Shown here: piece by piece, positions 3,017-30,612 of the stretch
Numbering within the stretch: the stretch's first letter is position 1
How the letters are laid out: each line of letters opens with the position of its first letter
From: a virus
Lineage: Duplodnaviria; Caudoviricetes
Direction: 5' to 3' (one strand)
Virus record (IMG/VR): IMGVR_UViG_3300037515_000063
Location: 1-46,356 of that record
Length of the DNA stretch: 46,356 bases
Notes under the pieces: model-generated
What the model saw: the letters and a program-made list of their open reading frames with translations, nothing else
Told to the model about the DNA's origin: nothing
Databases searched by the model: none
Position numbers and translations under genes: made by a program

Positions 3017-3050
3017 GAAAGAAGTACGAGTGTCCCCGAAGGGACACCCG
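3017..3050 (-). terminator. Post-capsid terminator (T-phi-like)
   Basis: gtgtccc-TTCG-gggacac hairpin followed by a pyrimidine-rich tail, just after the capsid stop codon. Confidence 0.7.
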
Positions 3051-3063
3051 CACAGGAGGTAGC

Positions 3064-3991
3064 TTAAGCCGTGATTTCCCACGTGAACTCATTACGGACA
3101 GGACCGTGACCCACTGCGACTTTAGCCACAATGAAGTCCTCCTGCCGACGAGTATCACGGTCAGTCTCAAGACCCATGCCGATCAGCTTGACCGTACCAA
3201 CGCCGTCGTTGGCCCAGCCCACACCCAGCGTACCACTATAGTCAGCGCGGTACTTCGCCTTGACGTCAGCGTTGGCTGCGTCGTTGGCGGAGGGGAGCAG
3301 GTTGGAAGGGAAGACCGTAACGTTGCCATTACGGACCTGAGGGCCGGTGTTCATCAGCCCCTCGTCGTTCATTGAGAAGCGCCGGTCTTTGAAGATGAAG
3401 CCGTTGGCCGCATCATCGTCGACATAAGCGTTCGCGATGGAGTCGAACGTGGGGAATGGAACAGCCAGCCACAGGTTCTCGTCTTCGCCGTTATCAGCGG
3501 CAGCGTCGAGTTCCATGGCCCGCATAGCTTCCCACCACTGCGCACCGGCAGCCGTAGCTGCGATGGTGCCTGAGGTGTCAGAGCTGGTGATCACCTGCCC
3601 GTTCCCAAACGGAGAGGTCATAGAAGCACTGGGGAGCGAAGTGTCAGCACGTGCAGTCTTGACAATCGTCCGGTAGACGTTGGTGTCGAGGACGCGCGCG
3701 AGCGCCTTCCCCAGCTCTTCCGTATACCGCCCACGAACCTCAAAGTGGCTCATGGCTTCATCAAGATCATAGATGCCGATGTGAGAGACAAGCAGCCCGT
3801 CAATCGAAATGACGTTCTCAGTTTCGTCAGTATCCTGACCGAGCATTTCCTGCCCGGCTACGTGGTAGGCCGCGTTGACCTTCCAAGTCTTAGGGAACTG
3901 AGCCGACTTGCCGTTAGCAATTTCACGGACGTAATGTTTGTCCATGGTGTGCGTCTTCTCAGTGAAAGCAGCGAATACCTCACCTCCGAAG
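3064..3991 (-). CDS. Major capsid protein, exon 2
   Basis: FGGEVFAAF...REIANGKSAQFP...ISIDGLLVS...YTEELGKALA...VGHGPVR, all T7 gp10-like. The first ~72 aa of the track ORF 3064-4206 are translated intron. Confidence 0.95.
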
Positions 3992-4242
3992 CATGTGTGT
4001 TCAATGAAGGGCGTTAACCTCCACCCGCCCCGGGGGGCTGCTGCATGTTGCCATGCAGATCGGACTATATCATAATCAGCACTCGGTATGCTGACTCCCT
4101 GCGCTTCGGCGCACTTGCGCCTACTCCGTGGATAGTCTCTGAACCTTCTCCTGTACGTTACCTCAGGAGCTTGGCTGCTGATTGCCCGCGTGGGGTGTCC
4201 CAGCAATTCACAGGGTTTAATGAAGACCTAAGTCAAGACTCA
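3992..4242 (-). ncRNA. Group I self-splicing intron, no endonuclease ORF
   Basis: Core elements P (AATTGCTGGG), Q (AATCAGCAG), R (GTTCAGAGACTA) and S (TGATATAGTCC). P3 ccctgtg/cgcaggg, P7 gacta/tagtc, P8 tcagca/tgctga, P9 ctgcatg-GCAA-catgcag. The 5' exon ends in U paired to G of the IGS, and the intron ends in G. Confidence 0.93.
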
Positions 4243-4334
4243 ATCTTCAGGAAGAGACCCGTCTGGTCCCCCGTGTTCGCGACGTCTTCGCCGAAACGCG
4301 TGGGGGCGCTAGGGTCTCCTACGAATAGCGCCAT
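4243..4334 (-). CDS. Major capsid protein, exon 1
   Basis: AAGGAAAA RBS, then ATG at 4334: MALFVGDPSAPTRFGEDVANTGDQTGLFLK plus 2 nt (AT). Joining to C at 3991 gives LFLKIFGGEV. Spliced product is 339 aa. Confidence 0.92.
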
Positions 4335-4536
4335 GAGATTTTCCTTTATGGCTTTTGTTGTAGGGAGTTTGACCCATTCTTTCTGGTTGACATTGGTTGA
4401 CAGGGAGAACCCGCCGCAACGGGGGGCACCTGCGCCTTTGCGCCTTCAGACTGGTATAAGATCAGGGACCCCGGTGATCAGCCAGGGTCCTTTCGACAAG
4501 TGAGCTCGGGGATCAATCCGCACTCACTCAATTAGA

Positions 4537-5070
4537 TTAGACGATACTCAGCGTGCCAGTCGCAGCAACGTCAAAGTCCAGCGCCTCTTCAGCGGCTGCG
4601 TCGGTGATCAGACCAACGCGGATAACGTCACCCGGGACCAACCCGCCGACGTAGGTGTCTGCGTTGAATTCATGGGTAGCCGAGACAGGGCCATCAAGGA
4701 AGCCCTCGTCTGCGTATGCGACCACGTCGTTGTTCAGGAAGATCGCAGCGATCACGGTGTCCTCGGAGTCAGGGACCGTGATGGACCCCTCAGCGACATC
4801 TAGATCCTTGACGGCCACGCGGACAGCGCCACCTACCGGACCGGAGTAGATCAGGCCGGGCTCCTCGTCGAGGTCGTGGCCTTCAGCGCCTGCAACTTCT
4901 CCAGTACGACCTTCAGCCGTGCCGGAGTATAGCCAGTCAGCACCGTTGCCAGTGGCTGTGGTGATGGCCAGGGCCTCAGCGCCCCCGGTGTCAACCTCGG
5001 CTGCCGCGGCTTCCGTGTAGGTGCCGATGAAGGGGACGGTCACGAGCCGCTGTGAATTAGTAAGGGACAT
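4537..5070 (-). CDS. Acidic hypothetical protein, possible virion/decoration protein
   Basis: 177 aa, D/E/A/G/T-rich with a beta-strand pattern. TAATG coupling to the upstream gene. Confidence 0.7.
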   Translation of the reverse strand: MSLTNSQRLVTVPFIGTYTEAAAAEVDTGGAEALAITTATGNGADWLYSGTAEGRTGEVAGAEGHDLDEEPGLIYSGPVGGAVRVAVKDLDVAEGSITVPDSEDTVIAAIFLNNDVVAYADEGFLDGPVSATHEFNADTYVGGLVPGDVIRVGLITDAAAEEALDFDVAATGTLSIV

Positions 5071-5717
5071 TATTTCTTCTCTTTCTTAGTGTCTACGAGA
5101 GTGGCGTTGCACGCGATGGAGACGCGGGTGCCCTCCCCTTTTACAGGATGAACGAAGTGAGGTAGCCATGATGGAAACACCACCATAGATCCGACCTTGG
5201 GTCGGAGGCGCGCGCCGGGCTGCATTACGAGACCGGGGATAGCGGCGTTGATGCCGCGCTGATCCACGAACTCTAGAGTGCCGGGTGCTGCCTTTACCCC
5301 TGTTGCCATCGTTAGGTCGGCTTCTTCGTCCGTCCCGGAGACGTAGTAGACCCCGGCGAAGTGGCAATTCGGGTGTGTATGGACAGTGGCGTAACCACCA
5401 TCCGTGTACGCCATGGCCCACGCCTGCATCTTGAAGGCGTATTGGGCGTCTGGGCCGCCGCCGTGAGCGACAGCTAGCTGTGCGAAGTTGTCGTTAAACA
5501 TCTTAGCGAGCTGGCGACCGGCAGGCCCACAGTCCGTTAGAACCGTGTCCTTGCTGTGCCATGTTCCGGCGACGTTGCTGCGGTAGATCCCTGCGGGGTC
5601 CACCACGCGCATGGCCCCGATGTACGCCATCAGGGCTTCGTTGAGTTTTGCGGGGGTCGCGTATTCCTTGACCACAAGTTGGGTCGGGAAGATTGTGGAG
5701 ACCTGAACCGCAGCCAT
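5070..5717 (-). CDS. Putative 2OG-Fe(II) oxygenase (TIGR02466-like)
   Basis: HTHPNCHFAGVYYV, FPSWLPHFV and RVSIACN motifs. Confidence 0.85.
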   Translation of the reverse strand: MAAVQVSTIFPTQLVVKEYATPAKLNEALMAYIGAMRVVDPAGIYRSNVAGTWHSKDTVLTDCGPAGRQLAKMFNDNFAQLAVAHGGGPDAQYAFKMQAWAMAYTDGGYATVHTHPNCHFAGVYYVSGTDEEADLTMATGVKAAPGTLEFVDQRGINAAIPGLVMQPGARLRPKVGSMVVFPSWLPHFVHPVKGEGTRVSIACNATLVDTKKEKK

Positions 5718-6747: not shown

Positions 6748-8261
6748 TACATGTTCCCCTCGGCTAGTTTAGGTGCTGCGGCCTGCATGGCCTGCATGGC
6801 TGCTTGACGGGCCTCACGCTGCTCCGCGAACTGCTGAGCCTCTTCTTCAGAGCGCACCATGTCTGGCAGGCCCATACCTACGAAGGCGCGCCCGATCAGC
6901 TTAGACAGCTTGACCACATCAGTTGCGTCAGGGCCAAACGCCTGAACCACCTGTGCGCCCTGCATCGCAGCCTGGGCGTCTCTCTCCCGGGATAAGGCTT
7001 CCAAACCAGTCAGGATCTTGGAGCTAACCATCCCCGGAGGGAGCGGCGGGGCCTTGTTAGCCTTGACGAGATTGATGATTAGCAGGGCGGTGCGGGCCGC
7101 AAGAACGTCTGTAGCAATGGTCCCGAATACACCACCAACTGAGCCTTCAATCTCTTCGATGTCAGACTGGATCTCTGTCGCAGTGACGCGCTCGGCGTTA
7201 CGCCGGGCCCCAGCCATCAGGAGGAAGGCCTTACTTAGGCGCTCCGTCATGATGCTGATCTGAGCTTCCGTTAGCTGGTAGCCAGCGCCGTTCGCGAACG
7301 ACTTCAGTTCGATAGATGCCGGATCACACATAAGCATCCCGCCGTTCTGGATTTCCTTCAGGCGATTGCGAATACTGGGGGCCGTTGCGCCGGGGGCTAC
7401 CGCAATAAAGTGGAAGCCAGCCATGGCAGCCAGTTCCAGCCCGGCCTTCTCAAGGGTCTCCAGGGAGCGTAAGTCGCTACAGTGTAGCTCGACCTTGGAG
7501 CGTCCGTAGCTTTCGCCGGGGACCTTGCTCCACCTGTGGACACGCCACGGCAGCTCTTCCACCGGGTAGGTTACACGCTCACCCACCTGTGCGCCGGTAT
7601 CCGTCTGCTTGACCTCGTAGTAGCGGTCTTCGTTGACGTCATACCATACGCGGGTGTAGAACTCGTACTCGCCCTCTTGGTTCTTTGACAGCCCCTTGCG
7701 CTGTGCCGCCGAGAGGCGCTTCAGCGGGATGTCGTCAGGGTACTCACACTCTTTAACGATCAGCTCCAGCAGCTTTCCCTTACGGTTACTGCGGCAGACG
7801 AACTGGTCGAGGCGGTAGGTGGTCAGTGTGTTGTCACTGTGTTGAAACTCAGCGACCGATCCGGCAACCATGAGCTGCTCGATCTGCTGGAGAGTTACTC
7901 CCCGCCAGTCGGCGCGTTCCATTTCAGCCTGGATGATCTGCTCGTAAAGCGCCAGTTGCTTCTCCAGATCAGGAGGCACTTCGCCCCCGTTCTGTAACCG
8001 GGCCTCGGGGGTCAGGTCCAAACGCATATAAGGCCGCCCCGCGGGCAGCAGGGCGGAGGTCATACGGTTAGATAGGTTTGAGACAGCATACGACCCCAGG
8101 CCCTGGTAGGCCTCAACGAGGTGTGAGCTGCGATGGTGGCCTTCGAGAGGCATCGCTGACGGGACTGTCAGAAGGGCGTTATGCCTAGCCCGCTGGAGGA
8201 ACTGGTTTCGTTCCTGACTATCAGCGGTGTCGTACCGCGCCTTCCACGTATCACCCATCAA
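6747..8261 (-). CDS. Portal / head-tail connector (T7 gp8-like)
   Basis: YQGLGSYAVSNL, GESYGRS and RNAERVTATEI motifs; 504 aa. Confidence 0.95.
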   Translation of the reverse strand: MMGDTWKARYDTADSQERNQFLQRARHNALLTVPSAMPLEGHHRSSHLVEAYQGLGSYAVSNLSNRMTSALLPAGRPYMRLDLTPEARLQNGGEVPPDLEKQLALYEQIIQAEMERADWRGVTLQQIEQLMVAGSVAEFQHSDNTLTTYRLDQFVCRSNRKGKLLELIVKECEYPDDIPLKRLSAAQRKGLSKNQEGEYEFYTRVWYDVNEDRYYEVKQTDTGAQVGERVTYPVEELPWRVHRWSKVPGESYGRSKVELHCSDLRSLETLEKAGLELAAMAGFHFIAVAPGATAPSIRNRLKEIQNGGMLMCDPASIELKSFANGAGYQLTEAQISIMTERLSKAFLLMAGARRNAERVTATEIQSDIEEIEGSVGGVFGTIATDVLAARTALLIINLVKANKAPPLPPGMVSSKILTGLEALSRERDAQAAMQGAQVVQAFGPDATDVVKLSKLIGRAFVGMGLPDMVRSEEEAQQFAEQREARQAAMQAMQAAAPKLAEGNM

Positions 8262-8269
8262 GGCTCCCC

Positions 8270-8527
8270 TTAACTAATTGAAATGCCGCCGCGCGTGGAC
8301 TGGCCACCGTCTAGGTCATTGCGAAGTGACGCCTTGCCGATCTTAGATGCGGCCAGTGCGCGTCTCTTGCGGGCCTCCGCCAGCTGGGCAGGGCGGTTAG
8401 GGTCGACGGACGACTTCTTGACAGTCGGCTTCTTAGGCTCTTTGTAGACGTTGATGCTTGGCTTGTCGGCCCCGCCCAGGAGGCCGCCGGTCAGCATACT
8501 ACCGAGGCCCTTAACTGCTTTGCTCAT
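8270..8527 (-). CDS. Small basic virion protein (gp7.3-like)
   Basis: K/R/G-rich with GKASLRNDL near the C-terminus, immediately before the portal. Confidence 0.7.
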   Translation of the reverse strand: MSKAVKGLGSMLTGGLLGGADKPSINVYKEPKKPTVKKSSVDPNRPAQLAEARKRRALAASKIGKASLRNDLDGGQSTRGGISIS

Positions 8528-8882
8528 AGTGGAGGTCCCTTGTGAAGATGTAGAATGGTTCGATATGAACAGCCTTGGCGCGCTGGACGATCTGGACCGC
8601 GCGGGGGTGGCTGTCAGACTGGACGACCACGGCAGAGCAGCCGGAGAAGCCGAAGATGTCGAAGATCAGGTGAATAAACCGCCGGGAGTACCAGCGTCCG
8701 TGCCACCCAGGGTCCGCGCAGATGTGCATTTCCAGTATCCCAGGGGCCGGGGTGACGGTAAACAACGCCACCACGACCAACTGGTCCCCTAAGGAAGCTT
8801 CAAGCGCCCAGCTACCCCTTATCAACAACGAGGGAAACGCCACGGGGTGACAGCGGCTCACGAAGTCCACCCGATCCGTCAT
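8511..8882 (-). CDS. Possible GNAT-fold/acetyltransferase-like protein
   Basis: LEMHICADPGWHGRW resembles GNAT motif A, and the position matches such genes in T7-like phages. Start at 8882 is inferred. Confidence 0.5.
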   Translation of the reverse strand: MTDRVDFVSRCHPVAFPSLLIRGSWALEASLGDQLVVVALFTVTPAPGILEMHICADPGWHGRWYSRRFIHLIFDIFGFSGCSAVVVQSDSHPRAVQIVQRAKAVHIEPFYIFTRDLHYEQSS

Positions 8883-9177
8883 ACATGTCAGGGTACTTTG
8901 GTGAGGCCGGTGCCAGGTCCACGTCAGACGTGGCCGGGTCGGGGCGCTCAGCGGCGCGGCGGGCGTCTCCGTCAGCAATCTCTTCGTCCCTCCATTGCAG
9001 CAGAAAGTCCACTGTTGCACGCATTCCCGCGCTGAATGCTAGGCTTAGTCGATTGGTCTCGTCCCCCATGAGACTGAAGCCTACGGGTGTGGTGGGTAGC
9101 TTAGGCAGCTGCGTCTCCCGGTCTAGATAGTCGATCAGATCGTAAGCTCGGCGAGGAATCTTGTCCTCTTTAACCAT
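8812..9177 (-). CDS. Hypothetical protein
   Basis: 121 aa with a GAGAGGGA RBS; first gene of the structural block. Confidence 0.7.
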   Translation of the reverse strand: MVKEDKIPRRAYDLIDYLDRETQLPKLPTTPVGFSLMGDETNRLSLAFSAGMRATVDFLLQWRDEEIADGDARRAAERPDPATSDVDLAPASPKYPDMYDGSGGLREPLSPRGVSLVVDKG

Positions 9178-9199
9178 TGCGGTTCCCTCTCAGACGGTT

Positions 9200-9424
9200 C
9201 TATGCCCATAGGGTCATAGCGGGGGGTGATGTGAGGCCCTCCCGGACGGTCTTAACGAGGACCGCCAGAGACAGCCACACGCCTACGTAGAAAACGGTGA
9301 TTACCCAATTGTCCTTCCGGGAGTCGTTGATCGCGAGGATGACGGGAAACACGAGCATAAACCCAACCAACCACAAGAGGACCTGGGAGAACATAGGACC
9401 GACCTCGATCACAGGGGCCAGCAT
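9200..9424 (-). CDS. Small membrane protein with two TM segments
   Basis: Two hydrophobic stretches; GGAG RBS before ATG 9424. Confidence 0.6.
   Translation of the reverse strand: MLAPVIEVGPMFSQVLLWLVGFMLVFPVILAINDSRKDNWVITVFYVGVWLSLAVLVKTVREGLTSPPAMTLWA
9205..9227 (-). promoter_or_regulatory. Possible degenerate phage-RNAP promoter ahead of the structural genes
   Basis: accccccgctatgaccctatggg shares the 3' GACCCTATGGG with the 23-bp motif (about 16/23 positions). Confidence 0.4.
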
Positions 9425-9503
9425 CAGGCGTGCTCCGAGACGGGCACCGGGCGCCACCGGGTAGGAGGACTGTCTTCCGTGATGTCTTGCCATCCGGTCA
9501 TGT

Positions 9504-9812
9504 CTAGGTATCCTCTCCAATGCATTTGATAGGTTGCCCGGCACGCAAGGGCGGCTGTGTACTAAAGCCACGCATACCTCGGTCACAATTATACACCCTA
9601 CAGGCGCGACCAGCGCATACAACTACGTAATGCCCGTCCGCGGAGGCGCGGATCGCTAGAACAGAGACGGCTGAGACTTCGGCCAAAGGGTTGGCTTCCC
9701 ACCCCTCTCCCGAGATGACAACTTCAGACGGACTTATCCGGGTAAGTACCCAGTCCCATAGAACTGTAGTCACGTGTGCCGATCCCACTTTTGTATCAAC
9801 TGTTATGGCCAT
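9504..9812 (-). CDS. Hypothetical protein
   Basis: AGGAG RBS before ATG 9812 (MAITVD). Confidence 0.55.
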   Translation of the reverse strand: MAITVDTKVGSAHVTTVLWDWVLTRISPSEVVISGEGWEANPLAEVSAVSVLAIRASADGHYVVVCAGRACRVYNCDRGMRGFSTQPPLRAGQPIKCIGEDT

Positions 9813-10234: not shown

Positions 10235-10982
10235 CTAGGGGTGGGCACAGCAGAACTGCGCGGGTTTGCCTATCACACGGGCCAGCTGTGTGTGCATGGT
10301 TATAAACTGGCGGTACGCCTGGGTCTGGTCTACGGGCGTCAAGGTTGTTCTGCGAGCATCAGGAAGGGCAGCCCACGCTGGCGTCCACATCTGTCCCTCG
10401 ACTAACAAATCCCGTCTCTCGGTAGCGAGTGCGATCAGGTCGTACTGCTTAATCAATTTCCGCTCCTCGTCCGTCAGTGTGATCCTCAGGGCCTTATTCA
10501 CAGCCTCATTGACGGCGTGCATGAATTAGGAAAACTCAAGACTTCTTTAGTTTTTCACCCAAATGGGCAATGGGCGACGAAAAACTAAAGAAGTCTTGAG
10601 TTTTCCTTATTCACAGCCTCATTGACGGCGTGCATGAACGGCTTCAGAGCCGGGACAGCGTACTTGACCTGCGTAATGATGTCTCCATAGTACGCCTCAG
10701 CGCTGTCGTGATGAAGGGCCGCGTAGACGAGGTAGAGGGCGTGCCCATCCTCAGCCATCCAGCGGGCCACAGTAAAGGCGTGCTGCGCCACGGAATACAG
10801 GGGGTACTCGGGGCGCAGATGGCCGTTGTACCGGCATAACCGGGACAGGGCCTGTGCGATGTCGCCCACGTCGACCTCTTCCGGACGCGGGTCAGTCAGG
10901 TAGAAGGCCCCCCGCTGGCTGTCTGCTGCCAAGGACCGCGAGAGGATGAGCTAACGCCCTCAGCGTTTTTCGATACCAACAT
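10235..10982 (-). pseudogene. HD-domain 5'-deoxynucleotidase-like gene broken by a G6 frameshift and a 113-bp insertion/duplication
   Basis: Fragments read WQQTASGG | AFYLTDPRPEEVDVGDIAQALSRLCRYNGH...YSVAQH...ALHHDSAEAYYGD...MHAVNEAVNK | ...IKQYDLIALATERRDL. Confidence 0.85.
10492..10638. mobile_element. MITE-like hairpin insertion with long flanking direct repeats
   Basis: Perfect 29-bp inverted repeat at 10528-10556 / 10579-10607. Perfect 34-bp direct repeat at 10492-10525 / 10605-10638. Confidence 0.7.
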
Positions 10983-11871
10983 CGATTTGTCCTTCCTTGA
11001 GGGGGATGGCGAGAACTGTGTGCTTCCCACACAGAGTCCCGTGCGGGGTCCGTAGGTTGACGTTGAGCTGGTGGGGTGAGAACGTCGCGTCCCCGTCCAC
11101 CAGAAGCCGGGCACAATATAGGTTCATACAGGCCTCGGCGTGTGGTGAGGACGTCATGAACTTTTCGCGGATCTTCCCTGCCGCGAACTGCTGCTGGTAA
11201 ACCGAAAGGACTGTGTGCCAATACTCCGCATCACTCGACCCGTACAGACCCTCCAACAACTTCGTCCCCTTGACCTTCCCAATCCCGGGAGCCCCTTTGA
11301 AATTGTCCGTCATGTCCCCTATGAGCGCCTGTAGCCACATGTTATGGCGACCCTCCCGGACGGAGGTCATACTGGACTTACACAGCTCCAGCGTCTCCCC
11401 CGGGACCACATGATACCCGGGGATCTGGAGGAGGTCTTTGTCTATGGAGACCACCACGGTCTTGGGATCACTGGTATGATGGGGTCGGGTGACGAACATT
11501 GATATGACGTCGTCAGCCTCCAGACCTCCCCGGCGCACCGCGGGGTACTTCTCAAGGAGGTAGTCACGAGCCATGACCACCGTCTCCGGGGTCGGCGGGC
11601 GGTTAGCCTTGTACTCCGGATGCAGCAGGTGTCGGAAGGTCTTACCCGGTCCTGAGAGCACCAGTGTTACGGTATCCTCGTGAGACACCGCGCCTGCCCC
11701 CGCCGCCCATAGGGCAATCTTGTCATCCACGATGGTCTTGATGGTCTCAAGGTTGACGACGTCCGTAGGTTCTTCGTCGGTACTGTAGCGCACTGCCTTG
11801 GTGGTCCCGCCCCAGGCTGCCTGGTACAGCAGCGAGTCGGCGTCAAGCAGCGCATGGACAGGGTGGCGCAT
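10960..11871 (-). CDS. 5'-3' exonuclease (T7 gp6-like)
   Basis: LLDAD, FRH...YKANR, LEADDV, SIDKDLLQIPG and GDMTDNFKGAPGIG motifs. Confidence 0.95.
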   Translation of the reverse strand: MRHPVHALLDADSLLYQAAWGGTTKAVRYSTDEEPTDVVNLETIKTIVDDKIALWAAGAGAVSHEDTVTLVLSGPGKTFRHLLHPEYKANRPPTPETVVMARDYLLEKYPAVRRGGLEADDVISMFVTRPHHTSDPKTVVVSIDKDLLQIPGYHVVPGETLELCKSSMTSVREGRHNMWLQALIGDMTDNFKGAPGIGKVKGTKLLEGLYGSSDAEYWHTVLSVYQQQFAAGKIREKFMTSSPHAEACMNLYCARLLVDGDATFSPHQLNVNLRTPHGTLCGKHTVLAIPLKEGQIDVGIEKR

Positions 11872-21290: not shown

Positions 21291-21515
21291 TCAATATGGG
21301 GTGTTGTTCAGGTACTGCCGGAGCGCGGCGCGGAAGTCACGGTACTCTTTGCTCTGGCGGAATGTATCGTGGGGTTGCCGGTTCGTCATGTACTTACAAA
21401 AGGCCCGGTCCATCAAGATGTGTGCCAGCTCGGCAGGCGTCAGAGCGGGGGTGAAGTTGCGGATGCGTGACATATTCCAGCTTCGATGCACTTTGGATAT
21501 CCGATCCGCCATCAA
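21291..21515 (-). CDS. Hypothetical protein
   Basis: 74 aa, overlapping the MTase stop codon. Confidence 0.55.
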   Translation of the reverse strand: MMADRISKVHRSWNMSRIRNFTPALTPAELAHILMDRAFCKYMTNRQPHDTFRQSKEYRDFRAALRQYLNNTPY

Positions 21516-23077
21516 TTCCCATCCCTCATAGAATCGAGAACGTCTGCGATGACCTCGGCGATCTGCATGGCAAGGTATGGTGGCACCGCGTTTCCTACCT
21601 GATGGTATTGAGCGGTGCGCGGCCCCTCGAATTTGTAGTTGTCAGGAAAAGTTTGAAGACGCGCGGCCTCACGAACAGTCAGGCTTCTGCACTGCGACGG
21701 ATCGTAATGAATGAAAGAATGACCGTCCTTCGCAATATGAGACGTGATCGTTGTGGATGCCTGATCCGGAAGTTGAACTTTGAACCGGTCGGAGAACATC
21801 TTTCCGGTACACCCAAGAGCGACATTGGCGTGATTTGGCAGCAGTTCGGATGGAAAATCAGCCAGCTTCGGGCTTTTGCCGGTTGCCTCAGCGAAAACCG
21901 CAGCATACATGTAACGCTGAAGATCAGAGGCCATATGTGCCCGTGCGTCATGACCCGTCAGTACGCTGAGTCGTGGGTCATACATTTCGCTCAATGCGCG
22001 ATGTCTTGCGCGAGTGCGGCCAGGATACAACTGAGAAAACCGCGCTTCCGGTCGAGCATTATTCTTCATTTGCAGCCGGATGCCGCTGACAACGGATTTT
22101 GCATAAGGTGCTCCGTTGAGCTGCGCAGCAAGGCTCATTTCGGCAAGCCCTGATATCGCGTGGGACCAGCCCTGAATGCTGTCTTCACCTCGTGACAGGC
22201 CACTGCGGACTGCCGGAAGGTTTCCGATTGTTTGCTTTACTGTCGGCGGCCTGTGACGACGCAACTGTCCAGGCCGCACATTTATATCGCTCCTGATGCC
22301 GACAATGAACATTCGGTGACGCGCCTGGGGGACTCCGTATTCCTCGGCCTTGACCATGAAAAGTCGCGGGTCCACGTCAGGGCCCACGTCACTGACTGGG
22401 TGATCGGGTTCGGACAAGGAGTAAAGTTGATAGTTGAGGCCGTTTGCATCGTTTTCCAAGGCGGCTTTGGGGCAGGAAAGACCAGCAACAATCCTGTTTA
22501 TAACGGAGTCGCCTCCGACTTTTGCCGACAACAATCCCTTTACATTCTCCATGATAAAAACGGGTGGGTGGTGATCGATGATGATCTTCAGATATTCCCG
22601 GTACAGGAAATGCCGTTCATCCTTTTCAAAGTCAGGCATTCCCATCATCCGTGATCGACCGACCAGTGAATATGCCTGACAGGGCGGTCCGCCAACCAGC
22701 GCCCACTTTGCCCTTCCGGTAAGCTTCTGATTGATAATGGAGCGTACCTTGTCGTGCGCATCTGCGCCGAGAGATATTCTCAGCGCACTTTTCTGCGCCT
22801 CTTTGAATTGCGGTTTGTGGTGGTTATATAGATCGTCCAGCGTGATATCGCCCCGCAGATAGTTATAGTATTCGTCCGGGGTTTCGTTTCGCGGAAAACA
22901 GCGCAGGAAATGCCTCAGCAACAGGGTTTGATGCGAAAACTCGTCATGTTCAATCGATACAACACTGCGAAAGCGCGGCTGATCATGATCTCCACAAACT
23001 GTGGCGAAACCTTCGCCTAGGCCACCTGAACCGGCAAATAAATCGACCACAGGATATGTTGGCAGGTTACTGGCCAT
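21512..23077 (-). CDS. dcm: C5 cytosine DNA methyltransferase
   Basis: DLFAGSGG, GGPPCQ, ENVKG, PQARHR, RSLTVREAARLQTFPD and QVGNAVPP motifs. Start is ATG 23077 or GTG 23095. Confidence 0.95.
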   Translation of the reverse strand: MASNLPTYPVVDLFAGSGGLGEGFATVCGDHDQPRFRSVVSIEHDEFSHQTLLLRHFLRCFPRNETPDEYYNYLRGDITLDDLYNHHKPQFKEAQKSALRISLGADAHDKVRSIINQKLTGRAKWALVGGPPCQAYSLVGRSRMMGMPDFEKDERHFLYREYLKIIIDHHPPVFIMENVKGLLSAKVGGDSVINRIVAGLSCPKAALENDANGLNYQLYSLSEPDHPVSDVGPDVDPRLFMVKAEEYGVPQARHRMFIVGIRSDINVRPGQLRRHRPPTVKQTIGNLPAVRSGLSRGEDSIQGWSHAISGLAEMSLAAQLNGAPYAKSVVSGIRLQMKNNARPEARFSQLYPGRTRARHRALSEMYDPRLSVLTGHDARAHMASDLQRYMYAAVFAEATGKSPKLADFPSELLPNHANVALGCTGKMFSDRFKVQLPDQASTTITSHIAKDGHSFIHYDPSQCRSLTVREAARLQTFPDNYKFEGPRTAQYHQVGNAVPPYLAMQIAEVIADVLDSMRDGN

Positions 23078-23079
23078 CT

Positions 23080-23133
23080 TTATATGCCTCGCCACCCGTG
23101 TTTCTCGATAACCTTTTTCTCTTCTGGTGTCAT
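23080..23133 (-). CDS. 17-aa leader/remnant ORF before the methyltransferase
   Basis: GAAGGGA RBS, MTPEEKKVIEKHGWRGI*, stopping 2 nt before ATG 23077. Confidence 0.45.
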   Translation of the reverse strand: MTPEEKKVIEKHGWRGI

Positions 23134-23170
23134 GTTGCTATTCCCTTCTTCAGTGTCCCGGCTGGGACAG

Positions 23171-24298
23171 TTAAAAATCTGACTTCGCTTTGGTTAGAGA
23201 CCAGCTCTGGCCCCCGACGTCGTAGTGGCCTTCTAGGATATCCCCTTTCGGGTGTTGGTAGTAGAACTTCCTCGCCAGCCATTTGCACAGCCGGGAGTCG
23301 TGGATACACAGGGACGCCCCCGCGAGAAAATCGTCCCACATGAAGTCCATGCTGCTCTGGTCCGTCAGGCGGTCCATGGCCACGTTGTCCAGATTAGGGG
23401 GCGGGACAGCTGGGTCAAACATCTGGTCGTCCTCTTCCAGCAGACGCCGGTCGTACTCCGTCTCATAGACCCCCTGCAGGCCGTCTTCCGGGACTGGGAA
23501 CCATTTCTTGGTCCACTTGTCCGTAGCACCCCCGGACGCTAGCGTCCCCGTGCCCGCCTTGACACCATGAGCTACCCCATAGTTACCGAGGGACGGCAGT
23601 GCGTCTGTCACCAGACCCGTCATGGCAGTTATATACTCAAGCTGTTCGTGACTTTCGACCATTTCAGGACACCCGGCCTTCCGAACCCACGTGACCACGT
23701 CTTCCTCGGCGGGCACAGCTCCAAGGTAGTGGGCCAAGATAGCCACACAAGTCCCGGTGCGTCCGTGCCCGCCCATGCAGTTAATCGTCACAATGCCGTT
23801 GACCTGCTTCAGCCGGGTTGCCAGCCGCTGCCACCATTTTGGGTCGGTTAGTTCGGGTACTGACGCGTCGGGCCACTCAATAGTCAGCACCGGAGTCGCA
23901 GGGACCGGCGGAGTACATATATCCTTACCCAGTAGCTTACGGGCTCCTGCGTTCGCAGAGATGGCCGGGTACTCCGCCACGTAGTTCGTCTCCCCGACCA
24001 GATCGATAGCCAGCTTGATGTCTGAGGTCTGCGCATGGAAGCGTTCGATGTTAGTCCGTGATCCTGTGTATAGCAGGAGCTTATTGACTGTCAGCAGGAG
24101 GTTCGCCTTGCAGTTAAAGCAGCCGAAGGGGTCGTCCTGTTTGTGCCCAGATGGCAGTGGCCCGAGCGGACCCTTGTATATTCTCGAGGGCGTCGAGTTG
24201 AACATGTGCTTAGCCATAAATACTCCAGCGCTGGTCTCGGCAGGTTTCAGGATAAACTTTCGTTGCTTGGGGTTGAGTCTGTGATCCCGCAAAGTCAT
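23171..24298 (-). CDS. Cys-based (tyrosine/dual-specificity) phosphatase-like protein
   Basis: P-loop INCMGGHGRTGT (CX5R), upstream WPD loop (IEWPDASVP) and downstream VESHEQ. Confidence 0.85.
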   Translation of the reverse strand: MTLRDHRLNPKQRKFILKPAETSAGVFMAKHMFNSTPSRIYKGPLGPLPSGHKQDDPFGCFNCKANLLLTVNKLLLYTGSRTNIERFHAQTSDIKLAIDLVGETNYVAEYPAISANAGARKLLGKDICTPPVPATPVLTIEWPDASVPELTDPKWWQRLATRLKQVNGIVTINCMGGHGRTGTCVAILAHYLGAVPAEEDVVTWVRKAGCPEMVESHEQLEYITAMTGLVTDALPSLGNYGVAHGVKAGTGTLASGGATDKWTKKWFPVPEDGLQGVYETEYDRRLLEEDDQMFDPAVPPPNLDNVAMDRLTDQSSMDFMWDDFLAGASLCIHDSRLCKWLARKFYYQHPKGDILEGHYDVGGQSWSLTKAKSDF

Positions 24299-26352
24299 CC
24301 ATTCGCTCCTCGGCCCGGTTGGACGAACAGGCGTGCGCCTGACACCGGGACCCGCAGCGCCAGCTCGGGGATTTCAATCGTATCCACCCGCGCATAGGCC
24401 CCCTGCTCCCGCAGGGCCTTCATGACCCCCCATGGGTTCGCGCCCATCAGCGCCCCCAGGGCTAGGTAGCTTCGGGCAAACCGAGGGGTGGAGCTTCTGG
24501 ACTGCTTAGGCTCCTGCAAATGCCCTAATGCCGGGGCTGGCACGGCTGTCAGCCCCGTATACCAGTCTGACGGAGCTTCAGCAAGGCCCCCTTCGGACCT
24601 AGGAACGCTACCGATCCAGACGGACGGGGCTGTTTGCCAGACGTCTAGATACTTCTCGGTGGTAAAGGTGGGCGCGAGCCTGAGGAGCAGATGTACGGGG
24701 TCCTGCGGCTCCCCCGGACGGCCTATAACCTCAGAGGCGGAACAGGGGCCCTGAAATTTATTGAGGAGAGGCAGGCACGCCGTAAGCGGCCCTCCAAAGA
24801 TCGAAGCAAGGACACTGATACGAACACCCTGTAGAACCCCAAGTGACCATTCGTTCGCCTTCTCAAACATCCGGAAGTGAACACCAAACTTGGCTAGTGC
24901 GCCGTCCCCTCCGTTGTGCTCTTGATGGATCATGTAATTCCAGCGCTGCACCACTTTGGCCCACGTAGGGGCGCAGGGAACCCGCTGGAACTTACGGAGA
25001 GCCCGTCCGAACTTGGCCGTTTCGCGCGTAATTTGCGCCCACTTCTTACCGCCATACGCGGACTCCCAGTTCAAGTCCGTAAACCCGGCCTGCACGGCAG
25101 ACAACGCACGCTCCAGGATCTTAGGGGGACAGCAAAAGCATCGGTCCGTATAGCAACTACGTTCCGTCACGCACTTGCCACGGAACACGGTCTCATACAG
25201 GGACGCGAGAGCGTAGGGTTCTCCGTCAGCTTTCTCGGTCCGGCTGATATGCCGCAGTTCCCCTACACACGCAGCCGCCATAAGCCGGAAATGAGCGGCA
25301 GCCCCGTAGGCGAGTAGTCTGAGCTGAGCATCCGTGGCCGTGCACTGAGTAGCAGAACAATGTAACGCAGCGAGCCCCAGCTGAGCCCAGTCGTAGGAAT
25401 ACGCACTCGGTAGCTCGCGTCTGTTGAAGTCTTTCATGTACTCAGCCAGCTTGTGCCAGTCCGGCGCGTCCCAGACGGGAGCCTCAAGTCTGGCTAGGGA
25501 CTGCCCGACGGCAGGCTCGAAGGTCGTCACACACGGCACCTTATGCACAACCGCGTGGACACAGTAATGGTTACTCAGGCTCATGGCCGGTGCCCAGACG
25601 ATGTCACCGGGGCGGGCGTTGTTAATGGTTCGCTCCCAAGCCAGCAAGTCTATGCCGGGGCTGGCCTGGATCACCTTCTTCACGACCAGATCCGCCGGGA
25701 TATAATCCGAAATCGCCATCTGCGCAGGCCCGCCACGTATCTGGACCGGGATCAAACAGGTGCCACTCTGTACCAGTTCTACATAAAACTCGTCGGTGTC
25801 GGGAATACCCGCCTTAGTCTTGAGATGCCGACACGCCTCAGGGACGCTGCTTTTTGGTGCAAAGATTGTCTCGGAGGCCCCGGAGGTCGCGCCGTCGTGA
25901 CCTTTCCCAAGCGACAGGGTCGTTTCCGTCAATATCGCGGAGTAGTCCGCTGGGATGAACTGCGTCAGCAGTAGTTCGGCCTCGGGGTCAGCTGCTACAG
26001 CCTCAGCCGCGATGCTGCGTAGGTCGTCTCCACTCACAACTATACGGCTGTCGACAAACCCATGACGCGGCTGCATGGGGCACGGGCGCACGAACAGCTT
26101 CAGATCCCTCATCGCGAGGCGTAGATTCACGTTTACGCCCTCCATCGGATCAGTGGCAGCCAGTACGTCCTTCGCAGACGCCCACTGCCAAGAACACAGG
26201 TGACTGGCGGCAGTAGGGCTGCAGAGCTGGTCTACAATGGGGTTATATACGCCTAACGCGTTAATCCCTCGGATTTTCTGGGTCGTCGGCTTAGTATAGG
26301 CCGCTTTACCGGTTAGGTAGGGGGCGAGGTGGTTCCACAGGGGCACACTCAT
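24295..26352 (-). CDS. PEP-utiliser/dikinase-like protein (ATP-grasp-like plus phospho-His swivel domain)
   Basis: FVRPCP, LLTQFI, VEL...VQIR and SLSNHYCVHAVVHKVPCV, which resembles the xxSHAAIVARxxGIPCV signature of PEP-utilising enzymes. Confidence 0.65.
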   Translation of the reverse strand: MSVPLWNHLAPYLTGKAAYTKPTTQKIRGINALGVYNPIVDQLCSPTAASHLCSWQWASAKDVLAATDPMEGVNVNLRLAMRDLKLFVRPCPMQPRHGFVDSRIVVSGDDLRSIAAEAVAADPEAELLLTQFIPADYSAILTETTLSLGKGHDGATSGASETIFAPKSSVPEACRHLKTKAGIPDTDEFYVELVQSGTCLIPVQIRGGPAQMAISDYIPADLVVKKVIQASPGIDLLAWERTINNARPGDIVWAPAMSLSNHYCVHAVVHKVPCVTTFEPAVGQSLARLEAPVWDAPDWHKLAEYMKDFNRRELPSAYSYDWAQLGLAALHCSATQCTATDAQLRLLAYGAAAHFRLMAAACVGELRHISRTEKADGEPYALASLYETVFRGKCVTERSCYTDRCFCCPPKILERALSAVQAGFTDLNWESAYGGKKWAQITRETAKFGRALRKFQRVPCAPTWAKVVQRWNYMIHQEHNGGDGALAKFGVHFRMFEKANEWSLGVLQGVRISVLASIFGGPLTACLPLLNKFQGPCSASEVIGRPGEPQDPVHLLLRLAPTFTTEKYLDVWQTAPSVWIGSVPRSEGGLAEAPSDWYTGLTAVPAPALGHLQEPKQSRSSTPRFARSYLALGALMGANPWGVMKALREQGAYARVDTIEIPELALRVPVSGARLFVQPGRGANG

Positions 26353-26355
26353 ATT

Positions 26356-26580
26356 TCAGGTTCCTTTCAGTACATGCCAGTTAACGACGGCACGCCGCTG
26401 CGCCTTCGCCGTCTCTTGAGTGATACGTCCGGCGGATAGCTGACGCTTGATGAAGCGAAGCGTTGAGGACTTCGCCCCAGTGAGCCCTGACTGCCGGGAC
26501 TGTGTACGAGCTTCAGCCCGGCGGTCTATAGGGCGGCAGAATTCCTTGAACCGCCCTGACGTCACCAGACAGGTTCTCAT
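26356..26580 (-). CDS. Small basic hypothetical protein
   Basis: 74 aa with ATGA coupling to the upstream ORF. Confidence 0.6.
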   Translation of the reverse strand: MRTCLVTSGRFKEFCRPIDRRAEARTQSRQSGLTGAKSSTLRFIKRQLSAGRITQETAKAQRRAVVNWHVLKGT

Positions 26581-26756
26581 GCGGGGGGGTACTTCGTGGT
26601 CGGGGCAGAAATGCCGTACTGCAGTGCGTCCGCGAGAGCCTTGCTAAAGGCATATGACATCGCGGTAGCCCGGGCACTCTGAAAGACACGGTCGTTCTGT
26701 GTAGCGCGGCGCTGCGCGGAAGCGAGAACGAGGTCGACAGCGGTTGGCTTGGTCAT
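26577..26756 (-). CDS. Hypothetical protein (59 aa, below the track cut-off)
   Basis: AAGGA RBS, MTKPTAVDLVLASAQRR...; TGA overlaps the next ATG. Confidence 0.55.
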   Translation of the reverse strand: MTKPTAVDLVLASAQRRATQNDRVFQSARATAMSYAFSKALADALQYGISAPTTKYPPA

Positions 26757-26768
26757 GAGGGGAAGTCC

Positions 26769-26999
26769 TTAGTTGTTACTGAGAGTGACAGTGCCGGAGA
26801 AAGGTGTGAGCATGGCGCTGGTAGATCCGTCAGACCATTCCTTCCCAACCGGACTGTTCTCATGTACCCCATCCGGGGCGATCAGAATGGACTTGCGAGG
26901 TCCTGTCACAAGCCAGATACTGCCTGTCGAGAGCCCCTTCGCCAAATAGGGGTAGTCTGGACGTGACGGCAGCGAAGCATCTTTGACTGTGATTTTCAT
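26769..26999 (-). CDS. Hypothetical protein
   Basis: AAGGAA RBS; ends in LTPFSGTVTLSN. Confidence 0.7.
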   Translation of the reverse strand: MKITVKDASLPSRPDYPYLAKGLSTGSIWLVTGPRKSILIAPDGVHENSPVGKEWSDGSTSAMLTPFSGTVTLSNN

Positions 27000-27514
27000 C
27001 GTCTGTTTCCTTCGTTTTCTGCGGTTCAGCTTAGGCGTAGTGTTCTACTGCGCCCCTTAGTTACAAAAAATAGTGATGTATTCGGGGCAACAGGGCACTC
27101 CTGTTGTAAGCCAGCGCACAAGCGCCGCCCGTCCCCCGCCAGTGTCCCATATCGGGACACCCGTATCCCCGGCGGTTGCCAGGCACCGGTGATGCTCCCC
27201 TTTCGCAGTAGCGGCCCCTAGCACCAGTCAGGCGGTACAGAGCTTGCGGCTAATCAGTTCGCGGACCTGAGACTTATATGCTAAGGCGTCTCAGGAGTGC
27301 CGTAGCTCGTCCGAGCGAGCGGTGTAAGATCAACAAGACCTTACCAGTATCTCCGCGGCTGAGGAACGGAGACACCAGAAAGGGCTAGCAGCGCCTTAGT
27401 CGCGCGGGTCAGACCAAATGACCAGACACACGGTACAAAAGGTGCATACGATCATAACTTGAAGTACGTCGAACCAGTTCATGTAGGTCTCCTGCTCGCA
27501 GCGATTGAATTAGT

Positions 27515-27546
27515 ATTATCCCACAACTACATTAACAAAACGTTAA
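27515..27546 (-). promoter_or_regulatory. Host-type promoter with a CtrA-like box
   Basis: TTAA-N7-TTAA at 27532-27546 inside the palindrome cattaac-N5-gttaatg; GATAAT -10-like hexamer at 27515-27520. Confidence 0.6.
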
Positions 27547-27550
27547 TGGC

Positions 27551-27583
27551 AAAAAGAGACCGCACGCGCCTGGACGTGCGGTC
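27551..27583 (-). terminator. Intrinsic terminator after the ParB-like gene
   Basis: gaccgcacg...cgtgcggtc followed by tcttttt. Confidence 0.75.
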
Positions 27584-27599
27584 CTAGGTTGAGGATTAG

Positions 27600-28247
27600 C
27601 TAGGCGGCCTTCTTGGCGCGGGATGCTTTGGGGGCGGCTGGCGTCTCAGCGGGCACAGCCAGCGCGGCTACGCGGCTCATAAACTGCAACTGCTCTGCGA
27701 CGGACAACAGGACGTACGCGGCCAGCGCCTTGTCGACAGGGGACTGTGCTGGAGCCTTGCGCTTGGCCACGGCGGCCTTGCGCGTGCTGCTACTACGGGT
27801 TTGCGTCTTGCCATTCGCGGCCTTGACAGCCGCTGGCTTGACTGGGGCGGTCTTGGCCTTGCGGGCAACGGCAGACTTAGACACGCCAGCCGCCTTGGCG
27901 ATGGTACGTACGCTTTTGCCCGCAGCGACAGCTTCGTGCACGTATGCAGTCAGTTCGTCGTCCGACAACTGGCGGCGACAGGCGTTGAGGGACACAGCCA
28001 GCGCGGCGGGATCTTTGACGCTGGTCTCTTCGAAGGGGACATGCTTGACCGGAATATTGAGGTCTTGCGCGATTTCCAGCCGGTGGTGCCCATCTACAAC
28101 GATACCCGCGCTGGTGATGATGATAGGCGTCTGAACACCATGCTTATCAATGTCCGCCTTAAGACGCTCATACTCTGCATCGGTGAGCGGGCGGACTGCG
28201 GTGTCATACGTGTCTGTCTTCAGTTGCGCATATTTCGTGACGTTCAT
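27600..28247 (-). CDS. ParB N-terminal-domain protein with HTH and Ala/Lys-rich tail
   Basis: LKADIDKHGVQTPI...VDGHHRL...SLNACRRQL, then HTH KSVRTIAKAAGVSKSAVAR. AAGGAA RBS before ATG 28247. Confidence 0.85.
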   Translation of the reverse strand: MNVTKYAQLKTDTYDTAVRPLTDAEYERLKADIDKHGVQTPIIITSAGIVVDGHHRLEIAQDLNIPVKHVPFEETSVKDPAALAVSLNACRRQLSDDELTAYVHEAVAAGKSVRTIAKAAGVSKSAVARKAKTAPVKPAAVKAANGKTQTRSSSTRKAAVAKRKAPAQSPVDKALAAYVLLSVAEQLQFMSRVAALAVPAETPAAPKASRAKKAA

Positions 28248-28410
28248 AATCGCATTCCTTCGTTCACAGACCCCGCGCGGGATGCGCAAGGTGGCGTCGA
28301 GTGCCGGGGCTAGCGGACGCAGTCGCGTTGCTTCTAGCACTCGGAGGGTTAGGGGCGCTTGGCGGGACGCAAGGCCCAAATCACCATTAGGATAATAAGC
28401 CATAGACGAA

Positions 28411-28440
28411 CTAATACCATAAGACATCTGGTCATGTCAA
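28411..28440 (-). promoter_or_regulatory. Sigma70-type early promoter
   Basis: TTGACA-N17/18-(TG)gTATTAG upstream of the ParB-like gene. Confidence 0.6.
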
Positions 28441-30495: not shown

Positions 30496-30612
30496 ATGCC
30501 TCCAGGAGCTCCTAGGAGCGCCGCTGGTGCGGATCAGGGTCTTCCAGGTAGGTCGATGACCAGACAAGGCGACTTGCTAATCCTGGCTGCTCCTAGGAGC
30601 TCCTGGAGGCAT
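30496..30612. repeat. ~117-bp element with perfect 24-bp terminal inverted repeats; diverged inverted copy at 31452-31557
   Basis: atgcctccaggagctcctaggagc at 30496-30519 and its reverse complement at 30589-30612. Confidence 0.85.

Follow-up and report, generated by a model that had tools for sequence, protein, structure and literature searches.

In 2004, Bonocora and Shub reportedly described group IA2 introns in the genes for DNA polymerase in the T7-like phages PhiI and W31. The DNA polymerase gene is also the location given for group I introns of T7-like phages in the available text of PMC3428280, PMC6083498, and PMC8351571, while group I introns that split major capsid genes are described from crAss-like phages (Yutin et al. 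2021, PMC7886860, available text). The gene preference of phage group I introns has been called mysterious (PMC12350094, in the text available). Here, we analyze an intron that belongs to this well-known kind of self-splicing element and that splits the major capsid gene of a T7-like phage. With it, the genes known to host introns in T7-like phages come to include the major capsid gene besides that of DNA polymerase; the literature that we searched, which lay outside most subscription papers and the supplementary list of >100 phage introns in PMC11878797, contained no report of a T7-like capsid-gene intron. As argued below, the element is very probably a functional, ORF-less group IA2 self-splicing intron that was recently gained by one T7-like lineage and is carried as a near-neutral passenger, with splicing predicted from the chemistry of its family.

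The window, by which we mean the whole stretch of DNA analyzed (46,356 bases, 59% GC), is one virus record rated 100% complete. According to PHROGs, its minus strand carries a T7-like gene set consisting of RNA polymerase, ssDNA-binding protein, primase-helicase, DNA polymerase, portal, scaffold, major capsid, tail tube proteins, and terminase. Both the gp10 homology of the capsid gene and the T7-like gene order, including a phage-encoded RNA polymerase, mark it as a T7-like (Autographiviridae-type) gp10 major capsid gene, an assignment that concerns genes only and not formal taxonomy. Even the top matches among 1,439 GenBank phage records are only ~34% identical in the capsid protein, and we therefore take the phage to be uncultured. 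Half or more of the window was contained in 3 of 20 sequence runs (the other 17 of 20 held under half), and these three are listed as sediment metagenomes, one of which may be the source of the window. No RNA run was among those listed, a result that carries no information on expression. Several other features of the genome were noted. Its two ends (1-1572 and 44785-46356) overlap by ~1.57 kb without being letter-identical throughout, and a tail tube gene is present at both. Two extra genes lie between the scaffold and capsid genes (4537-5717), encoding a 2OG-Fe(II) oxygenase (5070-5717) and a 177-aa acidic protein that has no family match (4537-5070). The early region (21512-28427) encodes a 527-aa C5 DNA methyltransferase, a protein that has a domain resembling tyrosine/dual-specificity phosphatases (23171-24298), and, at 27600-28427, a ParB-like/HTH protein. 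Upstream of this region is a perfect inverted repeat (30496-30612) whose 24-bp arms are 69 nt apart, which was the source of spurious microRNA matches. The near-identical contig G001 is otherwise ~99.9% identical to the window over 20 kb, except for a 1.6-kb patch of dense substitutions (8115-9772) that points to recent recombination with a relative. G001 also has an intact HD-type deoxynucleotidase gene, which in the window is split by a 113-nt insertion (10492-10638) that has a 34-nt direct repeat around an AT-rich inverted repeat of 35 nt (97%); this could represent either a miniature element or an artefact of assembly.

The capsid gene and all of its features described here are on the minus strand. 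Its ATG is preceded by a Shine-Dalgarno-like AAGGA (4342-4346), read from the sequence, and the capsid proteins of L002 and L099 start at the same M[AV]LFVGDP. Exon 1 (4243-4334) has 92 nt, equal to 30 codons plus 2 nt, its last base is the splice-site U, and its sequence does not differ from that of the intron-less contig L001. The intron (3992-4242) has 251 nt, 55% GC, and a terminal G at 3992, while exon 2 (3064-3991, 928 nt) encodes the T7 gp10-like remainder of the protein, matching phrog_267 (E = 3.6e-45) and the Pfam Gp10A-like family (E = 1.9e-36). A terminator-like hairpin followed by a U-run lies after the gene (3024-3053), as found by a consensus scan only (3 found vs. 1.3 expected by chance). 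The joined exons form a 1020-nt frame with a single terminal stop, which encodes 339 aa and reads LFLKI/FGGEVF across the join. Thus, both the exon coordinates and the restored conserved motif proposed in an initial annotation of this DNA hold. The intron-less 339-aa protein matches T7 gp10A (PDB 2xvr; E = 4.4e-37) with the LFLKxFGGEV stretch aligned. Without splicing, the frame stops at a TGA after 33 codons, as the initial annotation had read it (the TGA is at 4235-4233), which supports its view that the full capsid protein of the intron-bearing allele would depend upon splicing. It should be noted that an open frame alone is insufficient to place the boundary, as many U/G combinations keep the frame open. 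The boundary is instead fixed independently, because the contig L001 and a contig from run X2 both join 4243 to 3991. A further prediction, that standard gene callers would produce a wrong capsid N-terminus, proved right about the miscall but wrong about its form. For the window contig, the protein collection contains a 293-aa product whose start is the ATG at 3945 and, separately, a 33-aa orphan peptide, rather than the expected frame from a TTG at 4206, which is absent from that collection; the 339-aa protein is found on 3 contigs. The 293-aa form has no LFLKxFGGEV stretch to align to T7 gp10A. The annotation can now be corrected, as the database capsid protein is short of its first 46 residues and is accompanied by a spurious 33-aa peptide.

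A covariance-model search, which had been suggested as a check, places the element among group I introns: Rfam RF00028 matches 4265-4041 with 80.8 bits (gathering threshold 50, E = 4.4e-19, model positions 1-253), is the sole group I match, and is alone above its cut-off among 5 Rfam matches in the window. In P1 (4221-4249), the exon bases 4249-4243 pair with the guide at 4227-4221 through 6 Watson-Crick pairs and a U4243-G4227 wobble, and the helix is extended by 4242-4238/4233-4229, with the in-frame TGA at 4235-4233. This exon-guide pairing, the U-G wobble at the splice site, and the terminal G3992 agree in full with what had been proposed. The P4-P6 domain (4143-4205) consists of P4 (4205-4200/4181-4176), P5 (4195-4193/4187-4185), P6 (4175-4173/4145-4143), and P6a (4169-4164/4153-4148), while the catalytic domain (4062-4215) consists of P3 (4215-4209/4103-4097), P7 (4137-4133/4067-4063), P7.1 (4132-4125), a GUA linker, P7.2 (4121-4108), and P8 (4096-4088/4082-4074). 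The guanosine site of P7, likewise within 4062-4215, is G4137-C4063, accompanied by a bulged A4138 and the pair G4139-C4062. The 3' domain (3993-4060) is composed of P9.0 (4060-4059/3994-3993), P9 (4058-4052/4047-4041, with a GCAA loop), P9.1 (4038-4027), and P9.2 (4024-4004), whereas P2 is absent. Pairing was found in P3, P4, P5, P6, P6a, P7, P7.2, P8, P9, P9.0, P9.1, and P9.2, so the locus has the P3-P7 pseudoknot core of group I introns with P4, P5, P6, P8, P9, and a G-C guanosine site. P7.1 and P7.2 lie between P7 and P3' and are linked by GUA, which is the mark of the IA2 class as stated in the available text of PMC3428280. The initial annotation had listed P/Q/R/S, P3, P7, P7.1, P8, and P9 as present; P3, P7, P8, and P9 do pair, but P7.1 has shrunk to 8 nt, with either 2 bp and a 4-nt loop or 3 bp and a 2-nt loop. 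P10 is weak and pairs at 3 of 5 positions, 2 of which are adjacent. The minimum free energy fold is modestly better than those of shuffled sequences (z = -2.0, 8 of 200 as good), which is to be expected because the intron fold is a pseudoknot. The standard helices fill all 251 nt, leaving no endonuclease ORF in a peripheral loop, and Pfam detected no nuclease family among 90 frames of the window, a set without the 4206 TTG frame that crosses the intron; both results are in line with the earlier claim that a homing endonuclease is absent. The description of the intron as minimal had to be abandoned, since three ORF-less relatives measure 238, 248, and 258 nt. Judged by these sequence features, the assignment of 4242-3992 as an ORF-less group IA2 intron is confirmed.

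The structure also finds support in related introns. We aligned this intron with 13 of 22 dereplicated compact relatives, omitting 9 that mostly have extended peripheral parts. Across the 14 aligned introns, 92.5% of cells pair and two-sided changes occur at 40 of 63 pairs, whereas none of 500 shuffles reach the observed value and slid controls pair at 34-44%; the structure was drawn from this intron's own sequence, which favors it somewhat. P9.0 pairs in this intron and is weakly supported across the alignment (61% of cells). Beside the guanosine site, G4139-C4062 is replaced by A-U in the other 13 introns, a compensatory change. Since the helices are intact although an empty allele exists, selection to splice is implied. 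Among the 31 cores compared, the closest is that of L099 (76%). However, we name no donor because the intron tree is poorly resolved, with a support of 0.48 for the nearest group, and because the motif filter removed T4, MK21, and L056. Coverage of the intron falls short of 80% in every GenBank phage record, and the plasmid search yielded no match.

The initial annotation had also suggested a search of relatives for intron-less alleles, and one was found in a near-identical genome. L001, a contig of 19,954 bp, has 99.9% identity to the window over 2,999 nt on one flank of the intron and 99.4% over 1,616 nt on the other, lacks exactly the 251 nt of the intron, and has nothing between the two joined positions. 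The two alleles also coexist. In run X2, a 118-nt contig with a depth of 22.2 skips exactly 251 nt at 3991->4243, while a 369-nt contig (record 8, depth 5.47, one difference) contains the intron with both flanks. This run contains both alleles with common flanks and the intron-less allele is ~4x deeper, where the depths are contig means rather than cell fractions. Run X1 has a single 6,024-nt contig of depth 31.3 that contains the intron with both flanks, and no intron-less joint is listed for it, although contigs show presence only. The allele evidence comes from X1 and X2, as X3 and X4 are without cover across the junctions. It should be noted that L001 and X2 share the same nearby differences and may be one data set, and the window may itself stem from X1, so that there may be as few as two independent samples. 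Four synonymous differences from the intron-less allele are located within 58 nt of the 3' splice site (3967, 3961, 3937, and 3934; overall 3934-3967), and three of the four travel with the intron in run X2. As near-identical L001 lacks the intron and one run holds both alleles, we can conclude that the intron is optional, a real genetic passenger but not a switch that the virus needs.

Within the capsid clade, the intron-bearing allele stands alone. In a redundant set of 125 capsid loci, 124 cross the site unbroken, leaving only L302, which does not extend to the site. The 89 closest loci collapse into 50 clusters at 97%, and all 50 are empty at the intron site. One of the search patterns favored intact genes, whereas the exon-2 search did not, and 23 of the 24 loci from the latter cross the site with none interrupted. 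The outgroup L358, with ~95% identical DNA and an identical capsid protein, is likewise empty and agrees with L001 at all four nearby sites of difference. Because all 50 clusters of this close clade are empty at the site, a recent gain in the lineage of the window is the simplest reading of these sequences. Pattern searches of other records, a set that may lack those closest to the window, found no ORF-bearing intron at the same site. The pattern of exon 1 and the P element gave at least 120 matches, none with a capsid match among the matches listed; the pattern of the intron end and exon 2 gave 25, all without a capsid match or S motif; and the exact P1 stretch had 0 matches in other records.

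Other introns do occupy the same gene in relatives. These measure 591-628 nt, contain EndoVII-like ORFs, and are inserted at four sites from codon 58 to codon 85: one shared by L056 and L420, and one each in L302, L099, and L396. The L056 intron ORF matches Pfam Endonuclease_7 (E = 4.8e-23); Pfam was run on this ORF alone, and the others are referred to as EndoVII-like. The capsid frame of relatives is also broken by three inserts that have no core, located at L099:725-765 (41 nt), L396:389-449 (61 nt), and L397:1711-1760 (50 nt). Each follows an exon U, has a 7/7 internal guide pairing inside the insert, and ends in G. Just downstream of the insert, L099, L396, and L302 have a complete group I intron; L397 ends too soon, and L302 starts with the same insert end as L397. 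From their sequences, these inserts look like mini-introns that might borrow the neighboring ribozyme.

To place the locus among phage introns generally, we scanned viral contigs with a P7-P9 motif, which yielded at least 120 loci, at least 80 of them with flanks, and 76 of those gave a downstream frame. Among the matches listed, the best PHROGs matches of these 76 frames were major capsid (27), DNA polymerase (13), RNA polymerase (7), ribonucleotide reductase (5), tape measure or similar (4), endonuclease (4), thymidylate synthase (2), terminase (2), portal (1), primase-helicase (1), unknown (1), and none (9). The sample is redundant and biased, as the motif was derived from two capsid-gene introns. 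Capsid genes of six PHROG families are invaded, and at least 42 of the 120 motif-matched loci have a compact core, both counts again among the matches listed. Thus, the earlier assertion that phage group I introns mostly occur in DNA-metabolism genes overstated their rarity elsewhere, given that major capsid is the commonest host gene here and that crAss-like capsid introns are in print. These counts support the idea that what phage group I introns track is conserved essential genes generally, rather than nucleotide metabolism in particular. Separately, a group I intron-like element with an ORF splits the capsid gene at L452:1038-1655 (GenBank MW202512), scoring 47.5 bits, just below the Rfam cut-off. 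The MW202512 capsid has no significant similarity to that of the window, and in its record the label of major capsid protein covers just the downstream part.

In the mechanism that we favor, a ribosome translating the late capsid mRNA would meet the in-frame TGA 3 codons into the intron and release, whereupon the RNA would fold. Guanosine bound at G4137-C4063 would attack after U4243, a site set by the P1 wobble, and the 3'-OH of exon 1 would then attack after G3992 to yield the mRNA for the 339-aa capsid protein. In-frame stops just inside introns are common and thought to help folding (PMC3984707, available text); for this intron, we infer both splicing and the aid of the stop to folding from the known chemistry of the family. 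The intron would persist by lying within a motif that is conserved in an essential gene, so that nothing but its exact loss would be tolerated, and it would spread among co-infecting relatives by DNA recombination, either through repair of a cut made by another phage's endonuclease or through ordinary patch exchange. Against this explanation stand the reduced P7.1, the weak P10, and the lack of any detected mover, i.e. neither an endonuclease gene among the 90 window frames nor an ORF-bearing intron at the same site. The first of the two routes, homing in trans, is a sub-case of this explanation that we consider a genuine but tentative possibility. In it, an EndoVII-type/HNH nuclease of a co-infecting relative would cut the empty gene near codon 31 and repair would copy the intron with a short exon-2 tract, a pathway described in the available text of PMC3984707, PMC6083498, and PMC2988022. 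Consistent with this, 4 of the 6 synonymous differences in the gene fall in the 58 nt downstream of the intron (P ~1e-4 under uniform placement), three of them stay linked to it as noted above, and in L358, despite its identical protein, codons 29-44, which span the site, contain 8 of the 25 synonymous differences (permutation P of 3e-5 near the site and 3e-4 anywhere). The sister introns with EndoVII-like ORFs at four other sites of the gene also point in this direction. Gene conversion near a nuclease target is a known signature of homing (PMC2988022, available text), and both clusters of differences would fit repeated gene conversion at such a target. However, the two genomes are mosaics over 20 kb, in which the patch of divergence (8115-9772) and small clusters (10908-10948 and 11685-11699) occur without an intron, and the uniform-placement P values therefore overstate the case. 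For this reason, the SNP cluster was downgraded as a sign of homing co-conversion, while the asymmetry of differences around the intron was dropped, as exon 1 is too short. By Pfam and PHROGs, no candidate nuclease gene, free-standing ones included, was detected in this genome, and the pattern searches found no ORF-bearing intron at this site; plain recombination by patch exchange is the alternative route. We also considered the N-terminus of the 723-aa terminase large subunit (34031-34240), a CxxC...CxxC segment with a weak match to an endonuclease VII PHROG (E = 9e-5), and rejected it as a homing endonuclease: it is zinc-finger-like, has a weak likeness to the L056 intron ORF (18 residues, E = 0.002), and has no Pfam nuclease domain. 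It may be a fused DNA-binding remnant. A bolder version, which seems to us unlikely, would make the 5' end of the capsid gene in this clade a contested homing target, with the ORF-less intron caught mid-spread in a natural population and driven in trans by the EndoVII-type endonucleases of sister introns, L358 escaping by synonymous changes, and the 41-61-nt mini-introns possibly excised by a neighboring ribozyme. The cluster of synonymous differences in L358 lies at L358:968-1013, and with the guide of this intron the exon end of L358 would form just 5 of 7 pairs.

The remaining alternatives question whether the intron is a passenger, whether it works, or whether it is real. A dead or dying insertion would splice poorly, leaving the allele defective, helper-dependent, or reliant upon capsid made from the internal ATG at 3945. 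The reduced P7.1 and weak P10, the minor share of the intron allele in X2, and the 293-aa product listed by gene callers would all suit such a state, but the catalytic residues and helices are intact, the deep X1 contig bears the intron with no intron-less joint listed (within the stated limit of contigs), and the 293-aa form is missing the LFLKxFGGEV residues aligned to T7 gp10A; we regard a dead or dying insertion as quite improbable. The initial annotation had proposed that dependence upon splicing could gate assembly on host GTP/Mg status, i.e. a domesticated sensor in which the splicing rate reports GTP or Mg and thereby controls capsid synthesis. The capsid protein of the intron-bearing allele would indeed need splicing. 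However, a nearly identical phage does without the intron, the empty allele has the greater depth where the two are found together, and all 50 clade clusters are empty at the site. Cellular GTP is normally above the requirement of group I introns, which also counts against a sensor. Related introns occupy many unrelated genes and sites, and this one has the standard IA2 helices only, with no added aptamer-like domain and no Rfam riboswitch match (for the 200-nt intergenic stretch upstream, Rfam was the sole check). Control of a group I intron by a riboswitch is known from Clostridium difficile (PMC3984707, available text), and the idea of sensing by phage introns was raised as an unproven hypothesis in the available text of PMC11878797. 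Overall, the gating proposal finds no support at this locus, and we consider a sensor very improbable. The probability that the intron is an assembly artefact, or that the empty allele is a spliced cDNA, is close to negligible. Both sequences are metagenome assemblies and the runs are DNA only by guess, but two runs carry the intron with both flanks (X1 in record 1 and X2 in record 8), and the empty allele sits in a 19,954-bp contig with linked synonymous differences that splicing cannot make.

Thus, a functional and recently gained passenger remains our preferred reading of the intron. Its main value is that near-identical phages naturally provide an intron-bearing and an intron-less allele, which also occur together in one run. 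With these two alleles at hand, it can readily be examined whether introns of this sort are neutral, costly, or regulatory, and by what means one without an endonuclease spreads, with the uncultured state of the phage restricting such work to in vitro, heterologous, and read-level approaches.

Compared with described systems, the intron is close in kind to the IA2 introns of T7-like DNA polymerase genes. As far as the available text of PMC3428280 goes, it resembles that of Pf-WMP3 in phage family type, in having P1-P10 without P2, in its GUA-linked P7.1/P7.2, in the exon U paired with G, and in the terminal G. The polymerase introns of PhiI, W31, and Pf-WMP3 contain an HNH ORF in P6a, whereas this one is ORF-less, resides in the capsid gene, and has a shorter P7.1 and a weaker P10, again by the text available. 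The T4 td and nrdB introns (NC_000866, annotated as group 1A) fall below the Rfam cut-off and were compared by eye; they have the same order of P7, P7.1, GUA, P7.2, P3', P8, P7', P9, P9.1, and P9.2 and a near-identical P7'-P9 stretch, but they carry I-TevI or I-TevIII and reside in nucleotide-metabolism genes, in contrast to the ORF-less capsid intron of the window. The psbA intron of cyanophage S-PM2, which is paired with the free-standing F-CphI in collaborative homing (PMC6083498, available text), is likewise endonuclease-less with intron-less alleles in relatives, and EndoVII-motif nucleases occur in related introns in both cases, whereas Pfam and PHROGs detected no free-standing endonuclease gene beside the capsid gene or elsewhere in the genome analyzed here. 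Finally, the crAss-like capsid introns (PMC7886860, available text) similarly interrupt the essential major capsid gene of uncultured phages. Those phages belong to a different order and their introns, several per gene, were recognized via the protein domains that they encode, whereas the capsid gene described here has one ORF-less intron together with its exact empty allele.
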